From NCBI GenBank assembly GCA_964653435.1, contig CAZZFA010000008.1, forward strand, positions 15,253 to 79,252: DNA of 64,000 nucleotides, in the 5' to 3' direction. This document shows, piece after piece, positions 44,627 to 62,925 of the stretch; position 1 is the stretch's first letter; every line of letters begins with the position of its first letter. This DNA comes from an uncultured Planctomycetales bacterium. GTDB lineage: Bacteria; Planctomycetota; Phycisphaerae; UBA1845; PWPN01. Both the position numbers and the translations under genes were made by a program. The notes beneath the pieces were generated by a model that was not told where the DNA came from, did not search any database, and saw nothing but the letters and a program-made list of their open reading frames with translations.

Positions 44627-44679
44627 GCGCGCCCGAGTCGCCGGCGGAAGCGCCGGGGATGCCATCCCCGGCAACCCCT

Positions 44680-46168: not shown

Positions 46169-46289
46169 GCGCTGCAGTGGAAAACTACTCACACTGACAG
46201 CACGGGATCGATTCCCGTGATCGGTCCAGGCGGCGGTTCACCGGACAGCGAGCGAACCGCCGCAAGCGCGGTTGGCTGGAGGAAACACA

Positions 46290-46556: not shown

Positions 46557-46707
46557 ATCCCGCAAAACTGGAAGCTCCTGAAACTCTGAGCCCCTTTCAC
46601 CCGCATACAGTAATGAGAGACATGAAAGGCGCCCGTACTCAACTCACCGGCGGATCGCTCACCAGCGGGCGACCCGCCGGGAGGGCGGTGGCCTGGAGGC
46701 AAAACAA

Positions 46708-48167: not shown

Positions 48168-48619
48168 AGGTGGGCGCATCGCGGCTCGAAGACCGCCTGG
48201 CACCCTGGGAACCCCCGTACAAGTCCCGCGGGGAAGCGCAAGTAGGCCGGCTCCTTGACCGGTACGGGATACCCTTCTTCTACGAGAGCCCGTGGACCGT
48301 TCAAGACCAGGGGCGGCAGCGCACGTGGCATCCCGATTTCGCCTTGTTCTCCTATCGTGGGCTTGTGCTCGAGTACGCCGGCATGCCGGATCGTCCCGAT
48401 TACATGGAGGGCATTCGTAAGAAAGAGCGTGTGTACGCGCAAAACAGAATCCCGGCCGTGTTCGTGTATCCGCAGGACCTCCGCGGGCCGTGCTGGCCCG
48501 CACAGGTAATCGAGCGGATACGGGACACGTATCACGCAAGTTTCGGCCGGAAGAGTTACGGGGGTGCGGGGCACAGGTGGTACGCGTGCGGCGCACCGGC
48601 ACGCGCGAGGTACCGCTGA
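48164..48619 (+). CDS. Hypothetical protein, possible restriction-endonuclease-fold (PD-(D/E)xK-like) domain
   Basis: 4-nt overlap with the previous gene. The pattern E..VGRLLDRYGIPFFYE...HPDFALF...LVLEYAG resembles Vsr/DUF559-type cores. Unverified. Confidence 0.4.
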   Translation: MKVGASRLEDRLAPWEPPYKSRGEAQVGRLLDRYGIPFFYESPWTVQDQGRQRTWHPDFALFSYRGLVLEYAGMPDRPDYMEGIRKKERVYAQNRIPAVFVYPQDLRGPCWPAQVIERIRDTYHASFGRKSYGGAGHRWYACGAPARARYR

Positions 48620-48636: not shown

Positions 48637-50763
48637 TCACGCCCTGAGGTCGAGCCAGGTCAGTAGCTCGACGGGCGTGCGTGCGCTCGATCCCGCGGCC
48701 GCTATGGCCTTCTGGCAGGCGCCGACGGCCTCGGGACAGGTCGCCAGGAGGATGATCCTGTCGAAACCGGCGTTCTTGAGCTTCGTGATGTTTTCTTTGA
48801 TGTCAGATTTGCCGGTCTCGATTTCGAGGGCGACTCGCGCTCCCGGCCGCTCGGCCAGGAGATCAACAATGCCGTCGCCGGGTACGGGGTACTCGTGGGT
48901 GACCTCGTAGCCTTCGGACTCCAGATACTCGGCTGCCCGCTGAGCCCAGAACTGGTGCTGCAGGCTGGCGCGGGGGACAGTGCCGGGGTCAATGCCCATC
49001 TCGTCACACAGGGACCGGCCGTACTCCGTCAACTGGTAGAGCACGACCTGGCCGGAGCGCGTGGCGATGGTGGTGGCCTCGATGAAGCCGCCGGCGGCGA
49101 GCTGCTGCCGGACGGCGTTGCCTTTTCGTCGCGACAGATTCAGCCGCTGATATCGTGAGACGGTGGTGGACAGCGGCCTGGCCGCCACGTCGGCCAGGAA
49201 CCGGATCTCTTCCCGAGACATCTCGGGAAGAGTCTTGGGCGGTTGGCTATTTGGATCATCAGATGAATCATCTACTGGATATGGTCCGGATGAAGTCATC
49301 TGTGATTCAATGGGGGATGGTGGGTGGGGATTATTCTCTTGATATTCATCCGGGGCCGGAACGGGAGTGATCGGTGCCCATAAGGCCAGCGCGGGGCTAT
49401 TCGGTCCGGAATCACCGGAACAGGTCCCCATCCGGTCCCGAACCTGGTCATCCGAGACCGAGCCCTCTTGGATCGGAAACAACGGGACTCGGACCAGGAA
49501 GGGTTCGGGGTGTTCGTCCGCCAGGCGCACGATCGCGGTACCGATGGGCAACGTGCTGAGGGCCTCTTTCTGTTCCTCAGTCAGGTTCATGGCCCCGGCA
49601 ATGGTCTGGATGTCGCCGCGCAGCTTCTGGCTCAAGGCCAGGGTGGCATACGAGTTGGCAAAGGCGACCTTGCTCAAGAGGGATGCGGACTGATCGACAA
49701 AGACGTAACCCATGCCGTACTGGCGGATCATTCGGATTGAATTCTCCAGCACGGATTCCTTGGCTTCGGCGGCCTTCTGCAGCAGAAGGTTGTGCGCCTC
49801 CTCCAGAACGATCAGGTTGGTCAGTTTGGTTTGGGGCCCCTGGGCCAGGCGATAGCGGTACAGGTATAGCGTGAGGGCCTCCGAGAACATGGTTCGGTCG
49901 GAGTTGCTGGACAGGCCGTCCATCTCCAGGACCACGTTGTGGTTCAGCAGATCGCGGACGTGGCTGTTGTTCTGCGTGTTGACCACGGAACCGAACTCGC
50001 CATAGGTCATGGCAAGCAGGATCCTCTCGGCCGAAGCCTGCCACATGGCGGCTCGGCCTCGAAGCTTGTTGGATTGGAGCCAGATCAGAAGATCATGAAC
50101 TGTGGGCCATCGGGTCGGGTGTCCATCGAAGACGCCGGCGTCGCGGAACAGCTTGTCCAGCCCGGCGACCAGAAGGCTGATGACGCCCTCGCCGCCGAGG
50201 TAAGCGGCGGCGATGACGTCAACGATCAGCTTGATCCAGACGTTCGGCTCGCAGCCTGGCGGCGGGATCAGGGGGTTGAATCGGAAGGGAGAAACGTCCC
50301 GCCCGATGGTGTACACGTGAAGATCGGATTGGACGGCCATGAGGTCGCGGTACCCTCGCTTCCAGTCGAGGGCCAGCACGTTGATGCCGCGGGCCATGAT
50401 CCCCTTCATAAGAACGAAGGTCAGGTTGGTCTTCCCGGAGCCGCTTCGGCCGGCCACGAGGATGTGTTCTTTCAGCCTGGCGCTTTTGAGGAAGAAGGGG
50501 TAGAGCTCACGCTGGCCGTAAGAGACGTTGCCGACCTGAATGTCGCCGGCCAAGGCAAAGGTTCGCTCTGGCGGCGGGAACGGCGATCGGTCGGGCATGT
50601 AGTTCTGACCGAGATGGCGTGCGGCCAGCAGCTCGAGCATCTGCTCGATGTCGGCCTTGCCAGCTGGATCCGACTCGGACAGGTACACCGCCCAGAGTCG
50701 ATCGACTTTGGGGCCCAGGACAGGTTTGAGCTTACGACATAGTTCCTGAACACGAAGCATCAT
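48637..50763 (-). CDS. HerA/FtsK-superfamily (DUF87-like) ATPase fused to wHTH and C-terminal PD-(D/E)xK nuclease-like domain
   Basis: Walker A ILVAGRSGSGKTN and Walker B NLIVLEEAHNLL. Pro/Ser-rich linker. wHTH-like RRKGNAVRQQLAAGGFIEA...VVLYQLTEYG. Terminal GYEVTHEYPVPGDGIVDLLAERPGARVALEIETGKSD. Confidence 0.75.
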   Translation of the reverse strand: MMLRVQELCRKLKPVLGPKVDRLWAVYLSESDPAGKADIEQMLELLAARHLGQNYMPDRSPFPPPERTFALAGDIQVGNVSYGQRELYPFFLKSARLKEHILVAGRSGSGKTNLTFVLMKGIMARGINVLALDWKRGYRDLMAVQSDLHVYTIGRDVSPFRFNPLIPPPGCEPNVWIKLIVDVIAAAYLGGEGVISLLVAGLDKLFRDAGVFDGHPTRWPTVHDLLIWLQSNKLRGRAAMWQASAERILLAMTYGEFGSVVNTQNNSHVRDLLNHNVVLEMDGLSSNSDRTMFSEALTLYLYRYRLAQGPQTKLTNLIVLEEAHNLLLQKAAEAKESVLENSIRMIRQYGMGYVFVDQSASLLSKVAFANSYATLALSQKLRGDIQTIAGAMNLTEEQKEALSTLPIGTAIVRLADEHPEPFLVRVPLFPIQEGSVSDDQVRDRMGTCSGDSGPNSPALALWAPITPVPAPDEYQENNPHPPSPIESQMTSSGPYPVDDSSDDPNSQPPKTLPEMSREEIRFLADVAARPLSTTVSRYQRLNLSRRKGNAVRQQLAAGGFIEATTIATRSGQVVLYQLTEYGRSLCDEMGIDPGTVPRASLQHQFWAQRAAEYLESEGYEVTHEYPVPGDGIVDLLAERPGARVALEIETGKSDIKENITKLKNAGFDRIILLATCPEAVGACQKAIAAAGSSARTPVELLTWLDLRA

Positions 50764-51359
50764 GGTTGGTCACCTCCTTCATCCCCGAGGATCTGCAGCT
50801 TTCGAAAAGCAGACAGATACTGCTGAGCGGATTCAGGCAGGCGTTCACGGATTCGGGACACGTCGCGCCAGAAGGTCACTCGCTCCGCGCGCTGTTCGGC
50901 GCGCAGGTCGTGCATGCGTTTTTCGTAGACGGCATAGGCTTCCTCTGTCGCGGGGTTAGCGTTTCGGGCGAGTTCGTTGAAGGCGTAGCACTGGGACCAC
51001 TGGATATCGAGCATGTTCTTCTTGTAGATCTCCTCTCGCTGTTTGATCTGGCCAAGGACATCGTCAAGGGCCATCCAACTGGTGTGCTTGCGATCGAACA
51101 AAACCGCGGTCTCCGGCTCATGGTCCGGGACCGCGAAGTAGCCCTCTTGAACGAGATCTTCGACGGTCTGCGGACCGTCATCGATTCCAGCGACGTCTTC
51201 GTCGGCAGGAGAAGCGGGCTTGGCGGTCCAATAGGGTCGGACACCGTACCGCGGCAACGACGGCGTACGGCCATACTGATGATGCCTGCCGTACAGGTAC
51301 TGGTAGGCAATGGAGCCGTACGGAGTACCTGCGGCGGGACTTGTTGTTGATGGATTCAT
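50760..51359 (-). CDS. Hypothetical protein (199 aa), translationally coupled to the HerA-like gene
   Basis: GAGGTG RBS before ATG 51359. ATGA overlap with the downstream ATPase start. No recognised family. Confidence 0.6.
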   Translation of the reverse strand: MNPSTTSPAAGTPYGSIAYQYLYGRHHQYGRTPSLPRYGVRPYWTAKPASPADEDVAGIDDGPQTVEDLVQEGYFAVPDHEPETAVLFDRKHTSWMALDDVLGQIKQREEIYKKNMLDIQWSQCYAFNELARNANPATEEAYAVYEKRMHDLRAEQRAERVTFWRDVSRIRERLPESAQQYLSAFRKLQILGDEGGDQP

Positions 51360-51404
51360 GGGATCACCTCGGATGTGACTATTGCGCAGTGGTAATACGT
51401 TCGA

Positions 51405-51507
51405 GTTTATATGTGTTTCGGTCTGGCCGATGCGGCCGGGCGGCCTGCCGCCGGTTGGGTAGGCCGCCGCGGGGGTGTCACGAGGCCGTGGTGGCAAAGG
51501 TTTATAT
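51405..51507. promoter_or_regulatory. Divergent control region: two GTTTATAT boxes flanking an 8-bp-stem inverted repeat
   Basis: GTTTATAT at 51405-51412 and 51500-51507. ggcggcct (51439-51446) pairs with aggccgcc (51461-51468). Lies between the divergent starts at 51359 (-) and 51545 (+). Confidence 0.45.
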
Positions 51508-51544: not shown

Positions 51545-51712
51545 ATGGGAAGACCATTCAAGTGCCCGTACTGCGGATCCAACGAGACCGTCAGCAAGGG
51601 CGTGCGCCGCAACAAGACCGTCGGCGATCGCAAGGTGCGTCGGTGCAAGAAATGCCATCGCAAGTTCACGCCAAAGAACCAGCTATCGGTGAAGGCGGAG
51701 GACGAGGATTAG
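51545..51712 (+). CDS. 55-aa zinc-ribbon protein, below the track cut-off
   Basis: GAGGTG RBS. Product MGRPFKCPYCGSNETVSKGVRRNKTVGDRKVRRCKKCHRKFTPKNQLSVKAEDED, i.e. CxxC...CxxC with a basic loop. Confidence 0.6.
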   Translation: MGRPFKCPYCGSNETVSKGVRRNKTVGDRKVRRCKKCHRKFTPKNQLSVKAEDED

Positions 51713-51824
51713 CGGAGACCCCACGCAATGGACTCGCGACCGCGAGATCATTCGTCTGGCGTTCGAGCTGGCCCGCGCCGTCGATGCCCTGGTCGAGCAT
51801 ACGAGGGCATTCTGCTACGAGGTC

Positions 51825-52478
51825 ATGCTCTCGGCCCACGGCTGCCCAAAGTGCGGCGGCTCGCTGAAGATGATCGGCGAGAGCAGGTGTGCTTGCCGCG
51901 AGTGTTTGTACGAGTTCGACCCGACCGTCCACTTTCAGCGGTGTCCGGCCTGCGAAGGCCGGCTGCGGCTGCGGATCTGCCGGTACGTCTGCCAGAAGTG
52001 CGGGGCAGACGTACCGTCCCGCTTCGTGTTCGACGGGGTCGTCTTCGATCACGAGTACTTCCGCCGGAAGATGGCGGAGTCGCGTGAGCGGCAGCGGGAA
52101 CAGCGTGCCGAGCGCCAACAGCAGGTGGCGGAGAACCGGTCAGCGTCGGCGGAACCTCCGCCGGTGGACCTGGCTTCCGTGCCCGGTCTGCTGCAGGCGT
52201 TGAACGGCCTGACCGCGATTCCCGATCTGGCGGCTTGGGCGCCCCTGATCCAGGGTTTCGACTTGCAGCGCTACGAGGCGCATTTGCAGGCCCATATCGG
52301 GGCGACCGAACGCCGGTTCGATGATCTGCCAGCCCTGGACGAAAACCCTCGCCTGGACCGCATCTGGCGGTTCATCGCGATCATCTTCATGGCCCATGCC
52401 GGCCGTATCCGGGTCCGGCAACAGGGGCCGACCATTCTGGTGGCGAAAGTACATGAGACTGACACAGAAGGACCGTGA
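51825..52478 (+). CDS. Multi-zinc-ribbon protein (217 aa)
   Basis: CPKCGG, CACREC, CPACEG and CQKCG pairs in the first 70 aa. The frame is open from 51693 with no canonical start before 51825, so the true start is uncertain. Confidence 0.6.
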   Translation: MLSAHGCPKCGGSLKMIGESRCACRECLYEFDPTVHFQRCPACEGRLRLRICRYVCQKCGADVPSRFVFDGVVFDHEYFRRKMAESRERQREQRAERQQQVAENRSASAEPPPVDLASVPGLLQALNGLTAIPDLAAWAPLIQGFDLQRYEAHLQAHIGATERRFDDLPALDENPRLDRIWRFIAIIFMAHAGRIRVRQQGPTILVAKVHETDTEGP

Positions 52479-52809
52479 GTTCCTGGAAACACTCAAACGG
52501 CTCATGGAGTCGAAGGACCTGTGGGTGGACTTCGCGTCGGGCCACCCAGGTTACATGGTCCTGCGGGGTACTTACGGCGACAAAGTCCATCAGGCCTTCC
52601 GCATGAGCCGTCAGGGCGTCCGCTGGCGTTTTCAACGTCTGTTCAACGAGGTGTACGTCAATGCGTTCGAGACCATCCTGTTCATCGAGAAGATCTTCGG
52701 TCCGCAGCTCCGCGAGCACGCCGTACGAATCAGCCAGGAGCGGTACACGAACCGCCAGCAGCATCGACAAGCCGGGTTCCGATCGGCCAGCGAGGTGAAC
52801 CGCGAGTGA
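52453..52809 (+). CDS. Hypothetical protein (118 aa)
   Basis: MRLTQKDREFLETLKRLMESKDLW... Overlaps both neighbours. No recognised family. Confidence 0.5.
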   Translation: MRLTQKDREFLETLKRLMESKDLWVDFASGHPGYMVLRGTYGDKVHQAFRMSRQGVRWRFQRLFNEVYVNAFETILFIEKIFGPQLREHAVRISQERYTNRQQHRQAGFRSASEVNRE

Positions 52810-53297
52810 CCGATTCAACCAAGATCGACTACCGGTACCGTCGTATCAGCCAGATCGGGGATGTAACCGACCTGGTCACCATGCTGTTTCCGGGAAACCG
52901 AAACCAGCAGCACGCGGCGGCGCGGATTCTTCTCGTGTTGCGCGATGCCGAGGATCTGCGGGACAAGCTCAACGACCTGCAGCGGCGTTATGGTATCTCA
53001 CGGAGGACGCTGGAACGGACTCGGGCCAAGCTTGTCCGCCTGGGCCTCATCGAGCGCATCAGTTGGATGAACACCCGCTACGGTGGCCGGGAGGGTTGGA
53101 AGCTGTCTAGCCGGATGAGTTCATCGTTGCGCCAGCTGGCGGATCGGATTGATACTTGGCGAGCAGACCAGCGGCCGGAGGGTGCTCGGAAAGAGCAGGC
53201 GCTGATCGAGCTGTTGCGGCCTGCTGCGGCGGCGAGAAAGGAATTGCCTGAAGTGCGACGACCTGATGAGCGAATCGAAAGCCGGTCGTCTTCATGA
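52806..53297 (+). CDS. Putative winged-helix DNA-binding protein (163 aa)
   Basis: GTG start in a GTGA overlap. YGISRRTLERTRAKLVRLGLIERI is HTH-like. Confidence 0.5.
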   Translation: MTDSTKIDYRYRRISQIGDVTDLVTMLFPGNRNQQHAAARILLVLRDAEDLRDKLNDLQRRYGISRRTLERTRAKLVRLGLIERISWMNTRYGGREGWKLSSRMSSSLRQLADRIDTWRADQRPEGARKEQALIELLRPAAAARKELPEVRRPDERIESRSSS

Positions 53298-53401
53298 TCC
53301 ACAATCATCAGTAAACCTTATGACAAGATGTGTCCGGTCGGTGATGGCACGTTCAGCGTTGTGGAACGTGCCATCACAGGCACGGACCGGAGGAAAAGAA
53401 C

Positions 53402-53806
53402 ATGACATGGAGACCCAATGCATATCTATTGGAAGGCCAACTCGATAACACGCAGCCCGGCAGGATTACCGGCTGGATGCGGTTTGCGGGCCTTCCGCAG
53501 AAGGTAACCCTTGAACTGGAGGGGGATTTCGACCCGGATATCCGCGGACGGAGAATCGCTTTTCGGAATGCCTACTCCGGCAGATCTGCCGACGCCGAAG
53601 AGTACATGGACGGCTTCCAGCCGCGACAAGTCGGCAAGGTCGGCCACATCACGCTGGGCGGACCACCGCAATCCTGGACCGATTTCCCGTACATCGAGTG
53701 GATTTCGACCGAGAATGACCGTGTGGTCATGTACCTGGAGCCACACCAAGTGGCCGTGATTGATGAGTCGATCGAGGTTGTAGCCGCGGAACCTGGGCTT
53801 GGGTAG
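53402..53806 (+). CDS. Hypothetical protein, family C copy 1 (single domain)
   Basis: MTWRPNAYLLEGQLDNTQPGRITGWMRFAGLPQKV... aligns with the N-terminal ~125 aa of the 56982..57653 product, roughly half identical by eye. Confidence 0.65.
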   Translation: MTWRPNAYLLEGQLDNTQPGRITGWMRFAGLPQKVTLELEGDFDPDIRGRRIAFRNAYSGRSADAEEYMDGFQPRQVGKVGHITLGGPPQSWTDFPYIEWISTENDRVVMYLEPHQVAVIDESIEVVAAEPGLG

Positions 53807-53821
53807 CCCGGGGCCTAGCTT

Positions 53822-53852
53822 GGCCGGGACCCAAAGCCTTATAAACCCGGCC
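53822..53852 (+). terminator. Hairpin after family C copy 1 (7-bp GC stem, 17-nt loop containing TTATAAA)
   Basis: ggccggg...cccggcc, 16 nt after the stop. There is no U-tract, so its function is uncertain. Confidence 0.3.
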
Positions 53853-54169
53853 GTATTACCACTGGCCAATCCTCACAATGAGTGCACGTAATGTGCCCAC
53901 TGGCGAGCCGTATCGGCTCTGCCTGAGGACTCCTGAGCACGTGACAGCACGGACGCACCGCGTTCAGTCATCACGAAGCCGGTCCTCGACGAGAAACCGG
54001 GATTGGCCGAGAGCCAGCCCATGTTTGACGTAGTCTTCCCGCTCTTCTCGACAGACCGCCGTTTTGGGGCGGTTTGATGATCGTGTTCTGAAATCCGTAG
54101 ACCCCGAGCCCCGCTATTGGAGTGAGGCCCGGGGTCGTTGTGTCTCTGGATCGAAAGGAGGTTCTGCAT

Positions 54170-54424
54170 ATGTCCTACCGCAAAGGCCGCGTGACCGCGG
54201 TCCACCACCACAGTGGATGCTGGGAAGTAGTTGTTGAAGGTGAACGCCCCGGGTCCTTCCACATCGACAACATCTTCATTTGGTCGATGGTAGACGCCTA
54301 CGGCGCCGACTGGATCGGCCGCGAGGTGGAGTACAAAGATGGCTGGATGCAATTCCTGGACGCCGTCTCTGATGGTCCCACCTTGCATCCCGCCCCGATA
54401 TCCCGCCCGTTCCCCCTCTCGTAA
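54170..54424 (+). CDS. Hypothetical small protein (84 aa)
   Basis: AAAGGAGG RBS before ATG 54170. No recognised family. Confidence 0.55.
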   Translation: MSYRKGRVTAVHHHSGCWEVVVEGERPGSFHIDNIFIWSMVDAYGADWIGREVEYKDGWMQFLDAVSDGPTLHPAPISRPFPLS

Positions 54425-54563
54425 CGGTCGCTCCCGAAGCTTCTTCGCGTGAGAACATCGCCCAGGCGACGAACCCGCGCGCGTGCGCGGGCGCCCGTGT
54501 TTATCAAGTATCCGCGGTCTCACGCCGGCGATGGCATGAGACCCACCTTGCAAGGAGAAGGTT

Positions 54564-55052
54564 ATGTCTGAACGATATGCCGCAAGCATCACGATCGGCG
54601 GCCAGATCAAGCAGAGCGATCTGGCTGCGTTGCTGGAGGCCATCACACAAGCGTCGGCCTGTCACGACTGGGGCGAACCGCCGTTCGAGCCGAAGTCGGC
54701 TCAGGATCTGGCGGCAGCAACCCGTGACGGCCATCTCTTTCTGTGCGACGACCAGACCCGGTACGGCGAATTCCCAGAGCTGGAGACGGCCTGCCGCGAG
54801 CTGGGCCTGTCGTACACCCGCTGGTGCGAGGGTTACTGCGAGTATGACGCCGAGGTCGTCGACTGGCGACCGGGCATGAACGAGCCCCTCTGCCGCGCTG
54901 GCAGCAACTCGGGCGATGCCACCTTCGTGCCGGCAGATGAGGTCCGCAAGGCCCTCAAGCACCTCGAATCCAACCACATCGGCAGAGCGAGAGAACTCGT
55001 GCGAAAGCTCTGCCCCGACATCCCCGATCTCCCGCCGTTTACGATCGTCTGA
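54564..55052 (+). CDS. Hypothetical protein (162 aa)
   Basis: AAGGAG RBS. No recognised family. Confidence 0.55.
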   Translation: MSERYAASITIGGQIKQSDLAALLEAITQASACHDWGEPPFEPKSAQDLAAATRDGHLFLCDDQTRYGEFPELETACRELGLSYTRWCEGYCEYDAEVVDWRPGMNEPLCRAGSNSGDATFVPADEVRKALKHLESNHIGRARELVRKLCPDIPDLPPFTIV

Positions 55053-55209
55053 TCCCCTCAGCTCACTCACAGGTGTCTTGAGTCAGGCCCGCTGTCCGGA
55101 TTCACGGTGGTTCCGCGCGCTCGCGTGGGCCGTGGCGCCGGCATCTGAAGAGCGACCCCATGACCCGTGTGGCATGGTGTCGCACGCATCAACCATGTTG
55201 GAGGAAACC

Positions 55210-56829
55210 ATGAGAACGATTCAAGCAACGGTCAACCCCCGGCTTCTGACCAAAGCCAATCGCCTGTTTACCGGCACGCTGCAGGGCCGGATCATCGAGA
55301 TCCTGCAGAATGCCCGCCGGGCAGGCGCTACAAGAGTCGAGATCACGAACAGCAACGGCTGGATCACTGTCCGTGATAACGGCGAAGGTATCGACGACTT
55401 CCAGCGGCTGCTCGATCTGGGCGGTTCCGGCTGGGACGATTCCCTGGAGGCAAGCGAGGATCCCGCGGGTGTGGGCCTGTTCTGCCTGGCGCCGCGCGAG
55501 GTCACCATCCGGAGCCGCGGACAGATCGCGGTGATTCATAAGGACGGCTGGACCGGCGAAGCCGTCAGGATCATCACTGATCCTGAACCATGCGAGGGAA
55601 CGGTTCTGGCGTTCCAGGATGAGCCTTGGACATCGTCCGAGGTCGATCGGAACGCCGTCTTCACCGGCATGGACGTTACCGTGGACGGCACCGCCTGTCC
55701 TCGCGAGCCATTCGCTTCGGATCAGGCCACGGCGTACCCCGATCTGGGCTGCCGCATCGAAGTCCGCGAGTACACGGACCTGCATCCCTGGCACCGTTCC
55801 TGCCACCGTGGGCACTACGGCGACAACGTCCTGGTCAACTTCCACGGCCAGGTTGTACCGTTCCACCATTGTCCGTTGAGCGAGCACCACCTGCACTTCC
55901 TGATCGACATGACCGGCGAGCCTACGGGCATCCGGCTCATGCTGCCGGCACGAACGTGCCTGGTTCAGAATGAGTCGTACCAGGCGCTGCTGGTGGCCAT
56001 GGAACTGGAAGCGTTCCGCTACCTCCAGCACCGCGGTCACCATCGACTGGCCTACAAGGAATACCTTCGGGCCCGGCAACTGGGCATCATGCTGCCGGAG
56101 GCAACACCGACGTTCCGCGTCGGGCTCCTCAGCGGCGATACGCCCGAGCCGATCGAAGTGACCAAGCCCGACAACGTGCCGTTGTCCAGCTGTTATCGCA
56201 TGAACCTGGATCCTGCCCTTGGCGATGAGACCGACGAGGCCAACGTGCACCTGCTGGCGGCATTGGGCAAGTTTGCAGAGCCCTTTGTGCCCGTGGATGT
56301 CCGCAGTGAGTACGACGGCTATTCCTGGGCCAAGCTGCCAACGGTCGACAAGGTCGAGTTTGAGGCCGGTAAGGTTATGCGGGAGTCATGGCTCTGGTCG
56401 GGGAAGATCGTGTGCGTCAAGCGGCTTCAGATCACTGCGCACACCAGCGATGGTCGAGTCTTCAGTTCGCCGGTCTGCATGGGTATCCCGCCGGTGGGCA
56501 AGTCCGAGGAGAACCGGTACCGCGAGGATACCGTTTACGTAACGCCGGAAGCCCAGGAGAGCCTGGCGCCGGCGCACATCTGGTTCCATCTGGGTGGCTG
56601 GAGCGACGACGGGGATACCTACGACACCCAGGAACATGAGTTTACCGAGAACCTCGATCGCTTCTGGGCGCTCCTGGTCGGCCCCGACGAGCAGCTTCGG
56701 CGTGATCTCATGGCGGCCGCCGATGGCATCAAACCGAGGTGGAAGGCTGTAACACTGTCCGCGAACGGCACCGTTCGGATCCGGTTCAGGAGGGGCAAGG
56801 CCAAGGTCGTTCGACCGCCTGTCTGCTGA
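55210..56829 (+). CDS. GHKL-superfamily (HATPase_c-like) ATPase with large unknown C-terminal region
   Basis: GGAGG RBS before ATG 55210. N-box IIEILQNARRAGATRVEI, G1 VRDNGEGI, G2-like DPAGVGLF. ~400 aa of unrecognised sequence follow. Confidence 0.7.
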   Translation: MRTIQATVNPRLLTKANRLFTGTLQGRIIEILQNARRAGATRVEITNSNGWITVRDNGEGIDDFQRLLDLGGSGWDDSLEASEDPAGVGLFCLAPREVTIRSRGQIAVIHKDGWTGEAVRIITDPEPCEGTVLAFQDEPWTSSEVDRNAVFTGMDVTVDGTACPREPFASDQATAYPDLGCRIEVREYTDLHPWHRSCHRGHYGDNVLVNFHGQVVPFHHCPLSEHHLHFLIDMTGEPTGIRLMLPARTCLVQNESYQALLVAMELEAFRYLQHRGHHRLAYKEYLRARQLGIMLPEATPTFRVGLLSGDTPEPIEVTKPDNVPLSSCYRMNLDPALGDETDEANVHLLAALGKFAEPFVPVDVRSEYDGYSWAKLPTVDKVEFEAGKVMRESWLWSGKIVCVKRLQITAHTSDGRVFSSPVCMGIPPVGKSEENRYREDTVYVTPEAQESLAPAHIWFHLGGWSDDGDTYDTQEHEFTENLDRFWALLVGPDEQLRRDLMAAADGIKPRWKAVTLSANGTVRIRFRRGKAKVVRPPVC

Positions 56830-56981
56830 GTATTCCCATTTACCCAGTTCATGAGATTCACCGGCGTTCCAGTGGAGATTCTGCGCGTGTGCGCGGAGCT
56901 GGAGGCCGGAGTCAGTGGCCCACGGGCACGCCCTGGGCTTGAGGCGTGCCCGCAGAGGCACCTAATCGGAGGTATCGAACC

Positions 56982-57653
56982 ATGGCATGGAGACCAACAG
57001 AGCATCTGATCGAAGGCGAACTGGACAACACCAACCCCGGCAAGGTCACGGGCTGGATGCGGTTCGCCGGCATGACCGAGAAGGTCATCTTCGACCTTCA
57101 GGGCAACTTTCACCGCGACATCCGCGGCGCCAAGATCCACCTGACCGGCGAAGGTCAGGCGGACGACCCGGAAGCGGGCTCATACATGGCCAGCTTCTCA
57201 CCCCGGCAGACCGGCGAGGTCGGCGACATCACCGCTGGATTGCCGCCTGCTGACTATGTGGCCGGCTACTGCTATGTCGAGTGGTTCTCGGAGGAGAATG
57301 GCCGCGTCGTGATTGAACTCTCACAGGACCAGGTGAAGGTCATCGGCCGGCCGATCCCGGCGTGCGAGTCCGATCCGATCTCGCGCGAGGACCAAGCGCG
57401 GAAGATGGCCGGCTTCTTGGCGGGATTAAGCCAGGCCGCCGGCGTGGTTGCGATTGCACCGGCCCAGCGGCTGGTCTCCGATCCGGCGTTCAGCCACTGG
57501 GTTGTCGTGGACGGCAAGATCGCCGGCGAAGCCCATTCGGTCGAACCCGGCGGGAACGGTCAGAGCTTCGCGTTTGTCCGGCTGTTCAACATGCCGGAAG
57601 GCGCGGAGTACGGTTGCATCGAGACGGCGTACCTTCGCTGGAAGGGCGCCTGA
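56982..57653 (+). CDS. Hypothetical protein, family C copy 2 (family C domain plus ~100-aa extension)
   Basis: GGAGG RBS. MAWRPTEHLIEGELDNTNPGKVTGWMRFAGMTEKV... is paralogous to 53402..53806. Confidence 0.65.
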   Translation: MAWRPTEHLIEGELDNTNPGKVTGWMRFAGMTEKVIFDLQGNFHRDIRGAKIHLTGEGQADDPEAGSYMASFSPRQTGEVGDITAGLPPADYVAGYCYVEWFSEENGRVVIELSQDQVKVIGRPIPACESDPISREDQARKMAGFLAGLSQAAGVVAIAPAQRLVSDPAFSHWVVVDGKIAGEAHSVEPGGNGQSFAFVRLFNMPEGAEYGCIETAYLRWKGA

Positions 57654-57787
57654 CACGTCTTAAGCACGGTCCGAAAGCAGCCTCGCTCGGCGAGGCGCGC
57701 TCCCGGGCATTCGTGCGAATACCCGTGTTTCATGAAACCAGTGCGCGGCCTTGAGTGGTCAAGCTGCGCCGAAGGAGGTGTTATCAC

Positions 57788-58006
57788 ATGTTCGAGTCAT
57801 TGAACAAGGTCGATTGGGACCTGTTGCATGCGCAGAAGCTCACGTTGCTGGTGATACGAAGTCGGCAGCGCGATGGCTCACGCGAATTCGAGGCCCTGTC
57901 GGGGATCATCCATCTGCTGGATGCCCTGCAGGATGATGCCGTCGCCGACGGCCGTTGGAGGTTTCCGAATGAGAACGACGAGGAGGTGCACGATGTCAAA
58001 GCATAG
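57788..58006 (+). CDS. Hypothetical small protein (72 aa)
   Basis: GAAGGAGG RBS before ATG 57788. No recognised family. Confidence 0.5.
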   Translation: MFESLNKVDWDLLHAQKLTLLVIRSRQRDGSREFEALSGIIHLLDALQDDAVADGRWRFPNENDEEVHDVKA

Positions 58007-58568
58007 CGAATGGTCTGAAGTAGCCCCCCACATCATCTACGAGGCCTATCCGGATCACGACCTGCTGCCGATCGAACCCCCGCACGCCGGCGAGACCATC
58101 GGCGAGTTCTCGGCCAGGGCCGAGAATGCCGCGGACACGTTGTTCTTGTTTCTCTGCCGCGAGGCGGATGATGAGATCGATGTCCTTGAGTACTGGGCGC
58201 GACTGGATCGGGCGACTGGTGATATACAGAGCATACGGGATGCGCTCCGGGAGATCCCGTCCCCTCGATCGTCTGATCCCGGAACCGACAAGCGGGATGT
58301 GACCATCCGGCTCTCGCTTGATGCGGACTGGATCGAGCTGCTGCTGACGTACGCGGATGCGCGGGGCCGCCGATCTGGGAGCGTCGCGTCCACGCTGCAC
58401 ACATCCGAAGAGGACGCAGAAGAGTTCAACGCGGCGATGGATGCAGTTGAGTCCATGGTCCTCGGACACGCCTGCGCTGGGATCGACGTGACCGATCCCC
58501 GGTACGTCGAGGGCCTGCGCACGTGCATCGACGCGTGCGCGAACAACCTGCCGGGAGGTGATGCATGA
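57993..58568 (+). CDS. Hypothetical acidic protein (191 aa)
   Basis: GAGGAGG RBS. Overlaps both neighbours. No recognised family. Confidence 0.55.
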   Translation: MSKHSEWSEVAPHIIYEAYPDHDLLPIEPPHAGETIGEFSARAENAADTLFLFLCREADDEIDVLEYWARLDRATGDIQSIRDALREIPSPRSSDPGTDKRDVTIRLSLDADWIELLLTYADARGRRSGSVASTLHTSEEDAEEFNAAMDAVESMVLGHACAGIDVTDPRYVEGLRTCIDACANNLPGGDA

Positions 58569-58936
58569 TGATGCCCGAATACGAGTGTGACTGCTGCGGA
58601 GCCTGTTGTCGGGGTACGTTGATCGTCGAGGCGTACTACCTTGACGTGGTTCGCGAGCCCAGGCTCCTGGAGGCGGATGTGTGCGGTCGGCGTCCCACGA
58701 TGGCCGAGTTGTCTGATGACGACGGCCGGTGCATCGTGCTGGCCGCGAACCGGCCTTGCCGGTTTCTCTCCCCTGACGGTCGATGCACGATCTACCCCAC
58801 CCGCCCCAACAACTGCGTCGGCATGGAGGCGGGCGACGAGCAGTGCCAGGAGGCTAGAAGCCAACTGGACCTGCTGCCCCTCCAACCATCTCAACCCTCC
58901 CAATCGCCCGCACAGAACCCGCCACGCGTGTCCTGA
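58565..58936 (+). CDS. YkgJ-family Cys-cluster protein (CxxCxxCC, putative Zn/Fe-chelating)
   Basis: ECDCCGACCRG near the N-terminus, and PCRFLSPDGRCTIYPTRPNNC later. This is the UPF0153/YkgJ pattern. Confidence 0.7.
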   Translation: MMMPEYECDCCGACCRGTLIVEAYYLDVVREPRLLEADVCGRRPTMAELSDDDGRCIVLAANRPCRFLSPDGRCTIYPTRPNNCVGMEAGDEQCQEARSQLDLLPLQPSQPSQSPAQNPPRVS

Positions 58937-58962
58937 AGGGCCCGGTATGGGCCTTCTGTCTA

Positions 58963-58968
58963 TATAAT
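58963..58968 (+). promoter_or_regulatory. Consensus TATAAT hexamer, possible internal promoter
   Basis: tctaTATAATccc lies 28 nt upstream of the ATG at 58996 and upstream of the GAGGAG RBS. No clear -35 element. Confidence 0.3.
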
Positions 58969-58995
58969 CCCAACAGCAAAGAGGAGATTCAAGAG

Positions 58996-60084
58996 ATGTC
59001 AGACCAACTGACGTGCCCACTCTGCGCGCACAGCGCGCCGTTTACGTTGATTCCCCACCTGCGCACGGAGCACAAGATCGAACCCGAGGTGTTTCGCGTG
59101 CGCTTCCCCGAACAGCCCTTGTCCACGCCCACGTTCGGCGAGTTCCTGCGAGACCACCAGGTCCGTCGCATGAACGACATCCTGCATTACCAGCTGGATG
59201 TGGCCGGAACGCGGATGACCGCCCGGCATGGTGTGGACCACCCCCTGATCCCCGAGCCCGATCCGACGTTTGTCTGGACCGAACCCGCCCGGGATGTGGC
59301 GGAGGCGATCGAGCATAACGAGCGGGTCTTCCTCTACGGTCCGAGCGGCACGGGTAAGAGTTCGCTTGTCCGCCAGATCGCAGCGACGGTCAAACGGCCT
59401 GTCCGCCGCGTCTCGCTCAACGGCGAGACCAGCGTCGCCGACTTCATCGGCCATTGGACCGTCAACCAGAGCAAGGAGACGGTCTTCGTCAAGGGCATTC
59501 TGCCCCAAGCCATGCTGGAGGGCTACATCCTCCAGATGGATGAGGTGGATGCCATGCAACCGGAGGTCGGGTTCATCCTTCAGCAGATCCTCGAGCCGCA
59601 TGGCCATCTGCTGCTGACCGACACCGGTGACGATATCACGCCGCACGCCGACTTTCGGCTGGTGGCCACGGCCAACACGCTGGGATTCGGCTCAGACTCC
59701 GGGCTGTACGCCAGCGGCACTCACGTCCTGAACTTCTCCTGGCTGGACCGGTGGGACATTGTCGTCCACATCGACTACCTGCCCGGCGAAGATGAAGTAC
59801 GGTTGCTGCACAGCCGATTTCCGGCCGTCAAGAAGGACCTGCTCAAGTGCATGGTCAAAGCGGCCGGTGATCTGCGGCGGGCCCACGCCAACGAGGAGCT
59901 GACGACGGTCCTCACGACCCGCCGCCTCCTGGCCTTGTGCGCTCGGCTGGAACGCGGCAACGAGTTCCCACGGGCGTTGCAGGTCTGTGTGTTGAACAAG
60001 GTTCCGTCCGAGGACGTCCGCGTCATCCGCGAGACGTTCGAGCACCACGTGGGCCCCTTGGCGCAGGCCAAGACCGGCCCCTGA
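58996..60084 (+). CDS. AAA+ ATPase of the MoxR/CobS (AAA_5) type with N-terminal C2H2-like zinc finger
   Basis: CPLCAHSAPFTLIPHLRTEH. Walker A VFLYGPSGTGKSS and Walker B ILQMDEVDAM. LVATANT. Confidence 0.8.
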   Translation: MSDQLTCPLCAHSAPFTLIPHLRTEHKIEPEVFRVRFPEQPLSTPTFGEFLRDHQVRRMNDILHYQLDVAGTRMTARHGVDHPLIPEPDPTFVWTEPARDVAEAIEHNERVFLYGPSGTGKSSLVRQIAATVKRPVRRVSLNGETSVADFIGHWTVNQSKETVFVKGILPQAMLEGYILQMDEVDAMQPEVGFILQQILEPHGHLLLTDTGDDITPHADFRLVATANTLGFGSDSGLYASGTHVLNFSWLDRWDIVVHIDYLPGEDEVRLLHSRFPAVKKDLLKCMVKAAGDLRRAHANEELTTVLTTRRLLALCARLERGNEFPRALQVCVLNKVPSEDVRVIRETFEHHVGPLAQAKTGP

Positions 60085-60175
60085 ATTCGTTCTTCGTCGC
60101 AGGACAGGTCACGCTCGTCACAGCGATGCGGCGGGCGTGGCCTTTTTCTTTGCGCATCGCGGAAAGGATACGCAT

Positions 60176-62077
60176 ATGCGTGCAAACCCATTTGAAGGCC
60201 AGTTGGAACGGCTGGCCCGAACACTCACCGAGCAATTCGGCGTGAAGGTCATCTGCCAGGGTGACAACGCCTGGACCGACGGGCGGCAGATCGTCCTGCC
60301 GTCCTTGCCTGAGCCCATCAACGAGAATCTGGAGAAGATGATGGTGGGTTACTTGGATCATGAAATGGCGCATGTGGCGTTCTCGGATTTTAAGGTGGCC
60401 GAGGAGTTCGCTAAGAAGCATCCCGGCTTCGAGGGCATGCTGAATGTCGTGGAAGACGCCCTGATCGAGCAGCGGGCGATGCAACGATGGCCGGGTGTCC
60501 GCGCCAATCTGGATGCCATGTTCGCGCAGGTACGGGATCGGATCGTGCAGTTGATTGCTCAACGCGGGCCGTTCGACCGGCTTTGCACGGCGGTCTACCT
60601 GAAACTGGCCCACTACAACGATCTGATGGGGCTCGATCGTGAGCTGGCCGGATATGAGGATCTGCTGGATCGCTTCGCAGCGGTTCGGACGACCCATGAC
60701 GCCGGTGACCTGGCCGAGCAGCTTCTTGGCCGGTGGTTGAACCGCCATCCACCCAAGCCCCGGCCGTCCAGCCAAGGCCAGCGCTCAAACGGTAACCCTT
60801 CGAACACGAAAGGCGGCCCAAGCAACCCTGGCACCGATTCGGGCTTGGAACAGCAGTCCGGCGACACTGATTCAACGGAAAGCGACCCGCAAGACGGATC
60901 GGAGGCATCGGGTGACAACGCGCCGGCGGACACCCCGAATGCTCAGCAACCCGATACGGAGCCCGACCAACCAGACGCGGATGCGGCATCCGATGCCCGG
61001 CCGACCCGTGGGCCGCGGCGAACGCGCAAACGACGGCGGTGCGGTACCACAGCGCCCACCGATGATCAGGACAACCGCTCTGCCGGCGGGCAGGCCGTTG
61101 CGCCCAACGGCGGCACGCTCATCGGCGAGGCGCTGGCTGAGGCCATCGCCGAAGCGGTTGCCGGCTTGAACAACTCGGGCGAGTACCGGGCCTTTACGAA
61201 GCAGTACGATCGGATCGATGCGGTGGCCGCAGCCAACGAATCCGATGTGCAAGCCTTGTTGGCGACCGGTGTGGATGTGGTGCGCCGATTGCGGCGGGGC
61301 TTGGCCAATGCCCTGCGATCGGCCGAGAAACGCTGGTGGCGGGATGATCAGTTTCGGGGATCCTTGTCACCGCGGACCCTCTACCGATTATGCACGGACC
61401 GGCGCCTGCTGGACGTGTTCCGCATTCACTCGACGGTTCAGGGGCGATCCACTGCGGTATGTGTCGTGCTGGATGCCTCGGGCAGCATGACATCTCGCAA
61501 GATGGACGTGGCCCGTCAGGCCATGCGGGTATTGCTGGAATCGCTGGCGGACTTGAAGATCGCCACAGAGGCGTTCACATTCACGACCGGTGACCGGTTC
61601 AGCCTGGCCGAGGCCTGCAAGCTCACCGGCCATGAGCACACCCAGCTTCAGACCCGATTCAGCCGCTTCGGTAACCTGGAGATCGGGCTCATCAAGCGAT
61701 TTGAAGAGCCGGTCAAGCCTGCGCTGCGTCGCCTGCCCACCATTCGCGGAACTGGCCTCACGCCGCTGGGTGAGGCGATGCAGGTCGGCGCCTCGCGGCT
61801 CACCTCTCGGCCCGAGTCCCGCAAGATCATGCTCGTGCTCACGGACGGCCGTGCCGGTTGTGAATGTGGTGATACGGCGGCGGCGCTTCATGCCACGCAT
61901 GTTGCCGGGCTTTGTCGCAAGGCCGGCCTCGAATTGATCGGTGTCGGAATTCAAGATGACAGCCTGCGTGCGATCGTTGCGGATACGATCGTGATTCACG
62001 CACTGGCGGAACTTCCGGCTCAGCTCTGCAAGCTGCTGGGCCGCACATTGAAAAAGGGAGTATGCCGTGTTGGATAA
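60176..62077 (+). CDS. VWA-domain protein with N-terminal HExxH putative metallopeptidase domain and acidic disordered linker (CobT/DUF2201-like partner of the AAA+)
   Basis: AWTDGRQIVLPS...YLDHEMAHVAF. ~130-aa Asp/Ser/Pro/Gly-rich linker. MIDAS-type VVLDASGSM and LVLTDGRAG. Confidence 0.78.
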   Translation: MRANPFEGQLERLARTLTEQFGVKVICQGDNAWTDGRQIVLPSLPEPINENLEKMMVGYLDHEMAHVAFSDFKVAEEFAKKHPGFEGMLNVVEDALIEQRAMQRWPGVRANLDAMFAQVRDRIVQLIAQRGPFDRLCTAVYLKLAHYNDLMGLDRELAGYEDLLDRFAAVRTTHDAGDLAEQLLGRWLNRHPPKPRPSSQGQRSNGNPSNTKGGPSNPGTDSGLEQQSGDTDSTESDPQDGSEASGDNAPADTPNAQQPDTEPDQPDADAASDARPTRGPRRTRKRRRCGTTAPTDDQDNRSAGGQAVAPNGGTLIGEALAEAIAEAVAGLNNSGEYRAFTKQYDRIDAVAAANESDVQALLATGVDVVRRLRRGLANALRSAEKRWWRDDQFRGSLSPRTLYRLCTDRRLLDVFRIHSTVQGRSTAVCVVLDASGSMTSRKMDVARQAMRVLLESLADLKIATEAFTFTTGDRFSLAEACKLTGHEHTQLQTRFSRFGNLEIGLIKRFEEPVKPALRRLPTIRGTGLTPLGEAMQVGASRLTSRPESRKIMLVLTDGRAGCECGDTAAALHATHVAGLCRKAGLELIGVGIQDDSLRAIVADTIVIHALAELPAQLCKLLGRTLKKGVCRVG

Positions 62078-62669
62078 GAAGCTGAATCTGATGCTGGAGA
62101 CCGCGGCCGCACTGACCGCAGATGATCTCGATTGCCTTCGGGGCGTCGCGTTTGGCGCAGCGACGGAGTTGCCCGATGAGGAAAACGAGGTGGCAACGCC
62201 AACCTCCCCGGACGTCGCTGAAGAGTCCTCTTCAGACGACCACGCTGAGGCAGACGGAGCGCCACCGTCACGCCAAGCCCCGCGGAACGCTCAAGCCGTT
62301 AACCGCCGGCGTGCTGCTGCGCCCTCGTCAGGTGTGTCGGCAGGCGAGTACGAACGTCAGCGGACTCGCGAGTCGAAGGTTTCGACGGCCTGCATCGGTC
62401 ATGAACGCGAGAAGCATGACTGGTGGCCGATCGGCACGACGCTTGTCGGCCAGATCGGCTCCGAGACCTTTACCGCGACCGTGGTGGAGAACACAAGCGT
62501 CAAGAGCAACCGGAGCCTGCTGATCACATCAGGCGCCGCGAGCGGACGCGTCTGCATCACGCCCACGCGGGCGGCGATGGAAGCCACGGAAGCCTATCGT
62601 CAGGCCCACAACCTCGGTCGAGGGGGTGGTGTCACGAACGGATGGGAGTTTTGGAAAGCGCAAGCGTGA
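62067..62669 (+). CDS. Hypothetical protein (200 aa) with acidic disordered N-half
   Basis: GTG start after AAGGGAG. The C-terminal ...ITPTRAAMEATEAYRQAHNLGRGGGVTNGWEFWK loosely resembles the SPSxAA...NGWxxWK motif of DUF4357-type domains. Unverified. Confidence 0.5.
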   Translation: MLDKKLNLMLETAAALTADDLDCLRGVAFGAATELPDEENEVATPTSPDVAEESSSDDHAEADGAPPSRQAPRNAQAVNRRRAAAPSSGVSAGEYERQRTRESKVSTACIGHEREKHDWWPIGTTLVGQIGSETFTATVVENTSVKSNRSLLITSGAASGRVCITPTRAAMEATEAYRQAHNLGRGGGVTNGWEFWKAQA

Positions 62670-62925
62670 GCCTGCGTGTCCTTCCTCTCCTCTTCTCACA
62701 TCTTTCTCCTGCGCCCAAGCCTTGGGCGCATTTTTCCCCCTGAGCCAGCGACAGCTCCGTTCGACGCGGGTCCCGCGGGACATCATGACACAAACACATG
62801 AGCGTAAGTGTGCGCTGGCGCGCCACTTATGGGCTGTCGCAGAATTCCTGCGGGAAACCACTTGCGCCCTGCCCCGCTGTGCGCTATGTTGGATATGAAG
62901 TCTGTGACTCGAAAGGAGGTTTCGC

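Follow-up and report, generated by a model that had tools for sequence, protein, structure and literature searches.

The sole experimental phenotype known for the CobS/CobT-type gene pairs of mobile elements, in which an AAA+ ATPase is accompanied by a von Willebrand factor A (VWA) protein, is anti-restriction. On IncC plasmids, vcrx089 (AAA_5 and CbbQ_C domains) and vcrx090 serve in the evasion of type I restriction, acting in the recipient (PMC7498323), and deletion of vcrx089-090 increases EcoKI/EcoBI restriction 424- to 906-fold (PMC11602122). In a survey of jumbo phages, a MoxR-vWA chaperone/cochaperone pair with a metallopeptidase on the vWA protein was proposed to take part in virion assembly (PMC7824862). 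Here we compare these systems with a block of genes at positions 51545-62669 of a 64,000-nucleotide (nt) stretch of DNA from an uncultured Planctomycetales bacterium (class Phycisphaerae; contig CAZZFA010000008.1, positions 15,253 to 79,252), referred to below as the window. Kaur, Iyer and Aravind are said to have described in 2020 MoxR-vWA ternary conflict systems, in which the third component has a beta-propeller, VMAP or effector domain.

Plasmid establishment and anti-restriction arrays, with genes for ArdC, ParB-nuclease, DUF2958, DUF736 and orphan methylases, provide a second comparison. Like them, the block is a long co-directional array of small genes, and relatives of ArdC-like, DUF2958, DUF6573 and DUF3150 genes occur in the planctomycete elements. 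Distant relatives of the GHKL-type ATPase of the block lie within such arrays on Sphingomonas and Roseomonas plasmids. We suggest that the block is a co-directional mosaic accessory arm of an integrative element, with a role in establishment or counter-defence in a new host, a reading to which we give about an even chance of being right.

Gene content of the block

Open reading frames (ORFs) were listed over 49-64 kb. The G+C content of the window is about 62%, so that spurious long ORFs are frequent, and conservation was therefore chosen as the test of reality. Each candidate of the block was compared by tblastn with 86 related loci (designated by L numbers). A first-pass annotation, made from the letters of the window, had counted sixteen same-strand ORFs between 51545 and 62669; the ORF listing contains 15, and the co-directional run itself is genuine. 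All 15 have protein-level homologues in related loci and are thus genuine genes, not GC-rich ORF noise. They are given below with the number of loci in which homologues were found; GHKL stands for the ATPase gene g08, and famC for the protein family of g05 and g09.

51545..51712 (+), g01: zinc-ribbon protein of 55 residues with two CxxC pairs; sub-threshold Zn_ribbon_Elf1/TFIIB matches; 27 loci
51825..52478 (+), g02: 217 residues with multiple N-terminal zinc ribbons; sub-threshold DZR/rubredoxin-like matches; 27 loci
52453..52809 (+), g03: 118 residues, domain not recognised; 26-nt overlap with g02, and stop overlapping the start of g04; 26 loci, identity about 64%
52806..53297 (+), g04: putative winged-helix DNA-binding protein of 163 residues (MarR_2, E 0.004, below cut-off); 18 loci
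53402..53806 (+), g05: short famC paralogue of 134 residues, N-domain only, 47% identical to g09 (E 6e-43); no match in a Pfam search
54122..54424 (+), g06: 100 residues; homologues directly 5' of GHKL in 12 loci; neither a Pfam nor a PADLOC match
54564..55052 (+), g07: 162 residues, often the 5' neighbour of GHKL (15 loci, at -440 to -815 nt relative to it); no match in any family library searched
55210..56829 (+), g08: GHL-type (Hsp90/MutL/GyrB-like) ATPase of 539 residues, its middle domain transducer-like and its C-terminal region unassigned; 86 loci
56982..57653 (+), g09: long famC paralogue of 223 residues, the most persistent 3' partner of GHKL; famC in 38 loci
57755..58006 (+), g10: 83 residues; homologues in 26 loci, 3' of GHKL/famC
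57993..58568 (+), g11: 191 residues, overlapping g10 and g12; no match in family-library searches; 18 loci
58565..58936 (+), g12: YkgJ-type CxxCxxCC metal-binding protein (PF03692, E 6e-7, 30.4 bits against a cut-off of 23); 7 loci, found on either side of GHKL in loci other than the window
58996..60084 (+), g13: CobS-like AAA+ ATPase with an N-terminal CxxC...HxxxxH finger (AAA_5, E 2e-21; weak CbbQ_C, E 0.003); 18 loci
60176..62077 (+), g14: CobT-like protein in which an acidic low-complexity linker lies between an N-terminal HExxH domain and a C-terminal VWA domain whose metal ion-dependent adhesion site (MIDAS) is intact; 14 loci
62067..62669 (+), g15: 200 residues, overlapping the stop of g14; obligate third member of the CobS/CobT cassette; 9 loci
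62710..62730 (+): terminator-like hairpin with T-run just 3' of g15, so called from its position only

The entire block is colinear in one related locus (L019), and synteny maps show almost all of it in three others (L027, L014 and L022). Five junctions are overlaps (g02/g03, g03/g04, g10/g11, g11/g12 and g14/g15), which suggests translational coupling within sub-units. The remaining nine are gaps of 59-315 nt; together with a promoter-like element inside the block (53828-53877) they speak against the single operon that the first-pass annotation had envisaged.

The domain assignments made in that annotation stood up for the most part. The GHKL-fold ATPase, the paralogous proteins that bracket it, the YkgJ protein, the MoxR/CobS-type AAA+ protein with its finger and the VWA protein with an N-terminal HExxH domain are all borne out by the matches listed above or the motifs and structures described below. 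The zinc ribbons and the winged helix are weaker calls, made from sub-threshold Pfam matches and, for the ribbons, visible CxxC pairs. A DUF4357-like tail on the 62067-62669 protein was not recovered: g15 has no Pfam match at E<=0.1, PF14267 included, and of its 363 homologues the 120 listed are all without a Pfam domain. Effector-type domains (nuclease, protease other than HExxH, TIR, pore-former) were not found in the block. When the block was compared with PADLOC-DB v2.0.0, as had been advised, 13 of the 15 proteins were unmatched; g13 showed generic AAA+ similarity (RtcR/IetA, E at least 2e-6) and g04 a marginal Csa3 match (E 0.002). The statement that the block is no described system holds for the whole, which is unmatched in PADLOC, but not for its AAA+/VWA part, which resembles the IncC hde region and phage CobS/CobT.

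A mosaic of cassettes

Gene order was examined in 160 related loci; a GHKL-anchored set and an independent set anchored on the HerA-like ATPase gene of the element were used. Synteny maps split the block into (i) g01-g02-g03(-g04), (ii) (g06/g07)-GHKL-famC, (iii) g10-g11(-YkgJ) and (iv) AAA+-VWA-g15. The block is several independently assorting cassettes, not one 16-gene system. The order g01-g02-g03 is constant in the 27 loci with g02 homologues. Cassette (iv) is a tight unit, and g15 is present in nine of the twelve loci that have both g13 and g14, the other three being cut short or disrupted. Insertions of 1-5 kb lie between g13 and g14 homologues in three loci: L008 (14512-19597), L020 (9415-12624) and L015 (14161-15131).

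Forty-four GHKL-anchored loci have at least 8 kb downstream and are informative for the slot that follows GHKL-famC. It holds the CobS/CobT triad in 10 loci, a triad of E2-like, JAB and E1 proteins in 24, neither in 10 and both in none. Among the HerA-anchored loci, L171 has the AAA+/VWA/g15 triad without GHKL, several have the JAB/ThiF triad without GHKL, and some elements have no GHKL within 10 kb (e.g., L108, whose HerA is 70% identical). GHKL and AAA+/VWA thus co-occur poorly and each is found alone, so that the earlier proposal of a single co-functioning nucleoside triphosphate (NTP)-dependent system fails for the whole block, although not for the sub-cassettes. This was the comparison on which the first-pass annotation had staked that proposal.

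The CobS/CobT cassette and its relatives

In 14-16 homologues, the N-terminal CxxC...HxxxxH finger and the Walker A and B motifs of g13 are invariant, as are HExxH and NVVED (14 homologues) and the MIDAS motif DASGS of g14, which combines a CobT N-terminal domain with VWA. By sequence comparison, the cassette is a new member of a widespread mobile-element/phage gene pair that is already known. The phage CobS/CobT pairs (PHROG 249 and 1576) have the same domain architecture in both proteins, adjacent genes and a zincin on the VWA protein; g13 matches phrog_249 at E 5e-55 and g14 matches phrog_1576 at E 4e-59. Unlike them, the cassette sits on an element that is not a phage and that showed no structural genes, and its third gene, g15, is confined to the planctomycete elements. 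Relatives of g14 are common elsewhere, CobT-like tblastn matches being found on 1839 plasmids (IncC, SSU5-like phage-plasmids and others) and 34 phages.

The IncC plasmids offer the closest parallel with a phenotype. On one such plasmid an AAA ATPase gene is followed in turn by hypothetical, bet, exo, DUF3150 and VWA genes. The AAA ATPase beside bet-exo is 30% identical to g13 (E 4e-33), and g14 aligns with the VWA protein in a full-length colinear BLASTP match (E 4e-35) that includes HExxH, with GYLDHEMAHVAFSDF aligned to GYLAHEAAHVRFTDF. Both the IncC hde region and the block have a CobS-like AAA_5 ATPase and a colinear VWA-HExxH protein in a long co-directional accessory array on a mobile element, and DUF3150 is also present in sister loci of the planctomycete element. 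They differ in that g13 and g14 are adjacent and followed by g15, whereas four genes separate the IncC AAA+ and VWA genes, and in the extra N-terminal zinc finger of g13. The host phylum also differs, as does the replicon, an Orc1/Cdc6-HerA element as against an MPF_F conjugative plasmid.

Both proteins are homologous to subunits of the aerobic cobaltochelatase CobNST (PDB 9ujv, E 3e-41 for CobS; 9uka, E 9e-11 for CobT), and their neighbours among PDB sequences are the solved CobS and CobT structures and midasin. They fall far below the NCBIfam cut-offs for the enzyme itself (TIGR01650, CobS, 141 bits against 558.6; TIGR01651, CobT, 62 against 759) and lie in a mobile-element context. None of the four window ORFs of at least 900 residues matches CobN: two are of the ACR_tran/AcrB type, one is GH127/GDSL and one has no family. 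With the MoxR-vWA conflict systems the cassette shares the pairing of an AAA+ protein of the MoxR/CobS assemblage with a vWA protein, in a conflict-type neighbourhood. Against the bpMoxR profile g13 scores 20.6 bits (threshold 27), and neither g15 nor its neighbours have a beta-propeller, VMAP or effector domain.

An alternative triad in the same slot

The alternative cassette consists of a 357-residue protein (X357), a JAB protein and a ThiF/E1 protein, often with a 219-residue protein after it (for example L040:14473-17200, L072:4860-7500 and L029:3809-6325). The ThiF protein matches PF00899 at E 1e-20 and the JAB protein has weak Prok-JAB/Cap3 matches. X357 has no match in Pfam, NCBIfam or PDB sequence searches; it may be E2-like, to judge by eye from a THPHVS..LCEGDG motif, and has a Cys-rich tail. 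That the same slot is filled by this triad in sister elements suggests that it is reserved for protein-modifying machines, and the strict alternation with CobS/CobT is a hint that both cassettes act on proteins.

The GHKL ATPase and its partner famC

By sequence, g08 is recognised only in part: HATPase_c matches at E 3e-4 (Pfam) and MutL at E 0.3 (profile against PDB sequences), with no Pfam or PDB sequence match beyond residues 28-108. Its AlphaFold model (predicted local distance difference test score, pLDDT, 74) retrieves Hsp90/TRAP1, MutL and GyrB/topoisomerase II with Foldseek at E 5e-10 to 1e-7, aligning over 300-460 columns with the N and M domains of TRAP1, the LN40 fragment of MutL and the 43-kDa fragment of GyrB. 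The ATP-binding residues E30, N34, D56, G58, G60, G87 and G89 are invariant in 17 homologues. From the model and these residues, g08 is firmly predicted to be a GHKL/GHL superfamily ATPase with Bergerat motifs and a transducer domain, a group in which MORC is listed beside Hsp90/TRAP1, MutL and GyrB/topoisomerase II. It differs from MutL, topoisomerase B and Hsp90 in its 200 unassigned C-terminal residues and in having a dedicated partner, famC. Neither a MutL endonuclease nor an Hsp90 C-terminal domain was detected for g08, nor did the block yield a Toprim or topoisomerase A-like protein.

Homologues of g08 run to hundreds of full-length proteins of at least 58% identity, those named being from Phycisphaerae or Planctomycetes metagenome-assembled genomes (MAGs); across the best 120, identity is at least 60% over the full length. 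A search of a library clustered at 50% identity gave 401 family representatives at E<=1e-30 and 1624 at E<=1e-10; most of these are stand-alone proteins with a length of 540-640 residues.

Still more numerous is famC, with 2717 homologues of g09, of which the 120 listed include none with a Pfam domain. The AF2 model of g09 (pLDDT 77) is confident and beta-rich and has no structural match in PDB or BFVD. The N-domain of famC makes up the whole of g05, is extended by a 90-residue tail in g09 and, in distant loci, is fused to DUF2958 (the long famC ORFs of L036, L046 and L048). In other loci a free DUF2958 gene directly follows GHKL in place of famC (e.g., L079:9517-9876). Fusion and replacement thus link famC to a domain typical of the accessory regions of plasmids and integrative and conjugative elements. 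The possibility that the C-terminal domain of g09 is itself a degenerate DUF2958 was rejected (hhalign probability 0.5%).

Distant GHKL relatives were found on 104 plasmids (27-33% identity, coverage up to 95%), while famC has no plasmid relative in PLSDB. On a Sphingomonas plasmid, GHKL lies in a long co-directional array with ParB, a zincin-like (ArdC-like) metallopeptidase, thermonuclease, DUF3768 and DUF736; the gene that follows it was considered as a famC homologue and rejected. On a Roseomonas plasmid the neighbours are a thermonuclease, a zincin peptidase, PAPS reductase and a large N6-methylase. The neighbours of planctomycete GHKL loci include ArdC, DUF6573 and DUF3150. Taken across phyla, these associations favour an establishment or counter-defence role.

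One GHKL homologue stands apart. In L087 (a 285,752-bp ENA contig; locus coordinates 1-21626) it is embedded in a series of over 40 small genes on one strand, among them two Mg_chelatase-like fragments, an AAA protein, DUF3150, DUF1257, DUF2997 and an HNH endonuclease. The setting is a different one, a very large element or a phage-like context.

A promoter-like element before two putative transcription units

A 50-nt imperfect inverted repeat proved to consist of two copies of a conserved element, G[AT]AA.-N15-CGTATTACCACTG-NN-CAATCCTCA:

51374..51423 (-), copy A: promoter/operator-like element 14 nt 5' of the likely ATG (51359) of u2, the ORF that precedes the HerA-like gene
53828..53877 (+), copy B: promoter/operator-like element in the 315-nt gap between g05 and g06, facing g06-g07-GHKL

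Copy A lies within a divergent control region common to u2-HerA (leftward) and g01. The conserved length is about 46 nt, with CGTATTACCACTG as the core, and the position is conserved across related loci. An nhmmer profile built from five copies located the element 450-1650 nt 5' of GHKL in at least nine other loci (L004-6/18, L011, L071, L035, L086 and L068) and 5' of u2 homologues in four (L065, L057, L027 and L086); coordinates include L004:8893-8938, L011:8923-8968, L086:8725-8770 and L065:3312-3357. We infer a promoter or operator, the spacing of which resembles that of ECF-type (extracytoplasmic function) promoters. With copy B inside it, the block would comprise at least two transcription units, and with copies before both, the GHKL unit would be co-regulated with the HerA unit. 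Generic scans of sigma-70 promoters and terminators gave counts not above the shuffled expectation.

The host element

The genes next to the block are as follows:

43449-44303: ArdC-like gene (ArdcN), upstream of the block
44680-46014 (-): Orc1/Cdc6 replication initiator (TIGR02928, 239.3 bits against a cut-off of 181.3)
47079-48167 (+): conserved protein of 362 residues
48164-48619 (+): conserved protein of 151 residues with, by eye, a PD-(D/E)xK-like motif pattern
48637-50763 (-): HerA/FtsK-like ATPase of 708 residues with HerA domains
50760-51359 (-): u2, a 245-residue ORF preceding the HerA-like gene; these coordinates are its conserved part, with the likely true ATG at 51359

The gene at 44680-46014 is predicted to encode a bona fide Orc1/Cdc6-family initiator on a bacterial (Phycisphaerae) mobile element; it has the Pfam domains Cdc6_C (E 5e-21), Cdc6_lid (E 2e-15) and AAA_22 (E 4e-10), and homologues in 16 related loci. 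The HerA-like ATPase, u2 and the 362- and 151-residue proteins form a conserved backbone unit. Two overlapping ORFs were rejected as genes: 44623-46197 on the + strand is an antisense shadow of the Orc1/Cdc6 gene, and 47175-48602 on the minus strand is a shadow of 47079-48167. The C-terminal 180 residues or so of the HerA-like ATPase have, by eye, the look of a winged helix and a PD-(D/E)xK-type nuclease.

A purine-rich, relatively AT-rich repeat tract at 46090-46170 (AGTAGTAG..., then three 11-nt AGAAGAGAAAG units) abuts the Orc1/Cdc6 start and is a candidate replication origin or iteron region. It is preceded by an TTTATAAAC motif that resembles one in the promoter-like element. Between backbone genes there are GC-rich palindromes (CGG.TCGC...GCGA.CCG) like repetitive extragenic palindromes or terminators, at 42472-42500, 43148-43172, 46234-46262 and 46651-46679.

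Copper/silver-resistance cargo fills the first ~32 kb of the window (1-32000). It comprises two OEP/HlyD/AcrB efflux systems of the CusCBA-type resistance-nodulation-division family, a P-type ATPase with an HMA domain, a multicopper oxidase exported by twin-arginine translocation, YHS/TRASH and HMBD-domain proteins, an HC2 anti-sigma factor and a SpoIIE phosphatase. The element also has a radical-SAM (spore-photoproduct-lyase-like) gene at 32980-33930 (+). In L004-L006, a protein with a faint radical-SAM match (L004:6491-7624) lies between the g01-g04 and GHKL cassettes; tblastn showed no relationship between the two.

The host belongs to the integrative mobile elements of Phycisphaerae/Planctomycetota. 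Related loci have tyrosine integrases or serine recombinases at their edges, and GHKL relatives number 473 in GTDB species-representative genomes, often several per MAG and within Mb-scale chromosomes. Neither the window nor the related loci examined showed capsid, portal, terminase or tail genes. Integrases at the edges, multiple copies, chromosomal sites and the lack of structural genes together argue for a family of integrative multi-copy mobile elements rather than a phage. A prophage was rejected because IMG/VR holds only 6 distant GHKL matches and no structural genes were seen. The mobile element on which the first-pass annotation had placed the block is thus supported by Orc1/Cdc6, HerA, ArdC, the cargo and the integrases of related loci. 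Near-identical DNA was not found on known plasmids, nor were tRNA integration sites or Rfam RNAs found in the window.

Function of the arm

That the block has conflict-related content, as first annotated, is correct in a broad sense; counter-defence or establishment on behalf of the element is a more likely role than defence of the host. In cassette (iv), a hexameric AAA+ motor might dock on the MIDAS face of the VWA protein and remodel a target protein, which the HExxH domain could then cleave. By analogy with the related IncC AAA_5 ATPase Vcrx089, host restriction would be neutralised. In cassette (ii), the GHKL protein would be an ATP-driven dimerising clamp that acts either on the element DNA as it enters or on a protein of the host; famC (and g07) would serve as its adaptors. 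The proteins g01-g04 are probably DNA-binding regulators of the arm.

Several points weigh against an establishment or counter-defence role. The analogy with Vcrx089 is indirect: the IncC AAA ATPase compared here (L099) was equated with Vcrx089 by plasmid type and position beside bet-exo. Moreover, genuine CobS (PDB 9ujv) resembles g13 at least as closely as the IncC ATPase does, so that orthology with Vcrx089 is not established. The IncC VWA gene is absent from the five genes flagged by transposon sequencing (PMC7498323). Vcrx090 (the IncC hypothetical protein), bet and exo give nothing below E 0.08 by tblastn against the window, which, unlike IncC hde, has no ssb homologue. A Leptolyngbya (cyanobacterial) plasmid carries a GHKL relative among NB-ARC, NACHT and ABC-3C genes, a host-defence-like context. 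GHKL-anchored sampling inflates the appearance of GHKL as a core gene. Finally, the window yielded neither a relaxase nor an oriT nor type IV secretion genes, so that early entry of the arm into a recipient cannot be claimed, and "leading region" would be a label by analogy.

The strongest alternative is that the GHKL cassette, and perhaps the whole arm, serves replication, processing or segregation of the element DNA, with g08 as a MutL- or topoisomerase-B-like clamp working with Orc1/Cdc6, the beta-clamp and HerA. The fold of g08 matches the ATPase-transducer modules of MutL, GyrB and topoisomerase II, its strong full-length conservation agrees with such a role, and Orc1/Cdc6 and HerA are the closest backbone genes. 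A DNA polymerase III beta-clamp gene lies beside or near GHKL/famC in six loci (L089:12652-13950; L035, +3251 from GHKL; L071; L026; L064; L056). This proximity, and the co-regulation with HerA implied by the shared promoter-like element, fit DNA replication or processing equally well and count further against establishment or counter-defence. On the other hand, neither a Toprim/5Y-CAP partner nor a MutL endonuclease nor any other DNA-cleavage domain was detected in the block, the proteobacterial plasmid relatives lie among ArdC, ParB-nuclease and methylase genes and not in rep/par modules, and many HerA/Cdc6 elements lack GHKL within 10 kb, so that GHKL is dispensable for the backbone. We regard a replication role as plausible but rather unlikely.

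Much less probable is a single undescribed NTP-dependent defence system in which GHKL and the MoxR-type AAA+/VWA pair cooperate to protect the host or the element against phages or plasmids. AAA+/VWA pairs and GHKL ATPases are both found in conflict systems, the genes are tightly packed in one direction, and L019 has the complete block in the same order, with three further loci coming close to it. The NACHT/NB-ARC/ABC-3C neighbourhood of the distant GHKL relative, and two unrelated modules alternating in one slot, as is typical of conflict loci, also point this way. However, the two ATPase modules occur together in only 10 of the 44 informative loci and each occurs alone, the block is split by a conserved promoter-like element, no effector-type domain was found, PADLOC gives nothing beyond generic AAA+ similarity, and the nearest experimentally studied AAA+ relative is an anti-restriction factor, not a defence protein.

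Least probable of all is that the CobS/CobT pair is an assembly chaperone for a particle or surface structure, or a true cobalt-chelatase auxiliary metabolic module: the strong matches to phrog_249 (annotated "porphyrin biosynthesis") and phrog_1576, the virion-assembly proposal for the phage MoxR-vWA-metallopeptidase pair (PMC7824862) and the solved CobS and CobT as best PDB sequence matches besides midasin speak for it, but the equivalog cut-offs are far from reached, the window has no CobN-sized ORF with a CobN match, particle genes were not seen in the window or related loci examined, and predicted viral contigs have few GHKL relatives, all of them distant.

An establishment or counter-defence role can also be put in a bolder form. 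GHKL-famC (+g07) would form a novel ATP-dependent device for counter-defence or for the protection of DNA, with diverged forms in planctomycete integrative elements and alphaproteobacterial plasmids. The adjacent slot would be a bay for interchangeable protein-targeting machines (CobS/CobT-zincin or E2-like/JAB/E1) that disable host immunity proteins. This stronger version we consider distinctly unlikely as it stands.

Implications

Planctomycetota mobile elements are almost unstudied, and the window shows a widespread, multi-copy family of them in which metal-resistance cargo and an accessory arm accompany an archaeal-type Orc1/Cdc6 initiator and a HerA-like ATPase. Within this arm, which consists almost entirely of unnamed protein families, the GHKL-famC pair represents a large, highly conserved and uncharacterised family. 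The CobS/CobT cassette connects the planctomycete elements with the clinically important IncC/SXT anti-restriction locus. As a phylogenetically remote version with an adjacent VWA-zincin partner, it could help to solve the mechanism of IncC/SXT anti-restriction. If the device and its bay prove to be real, they would amount to an unrecognised, promoter-coordinated establishment programme in a bacterial family of Orc1/Cdc6-replicating elements.

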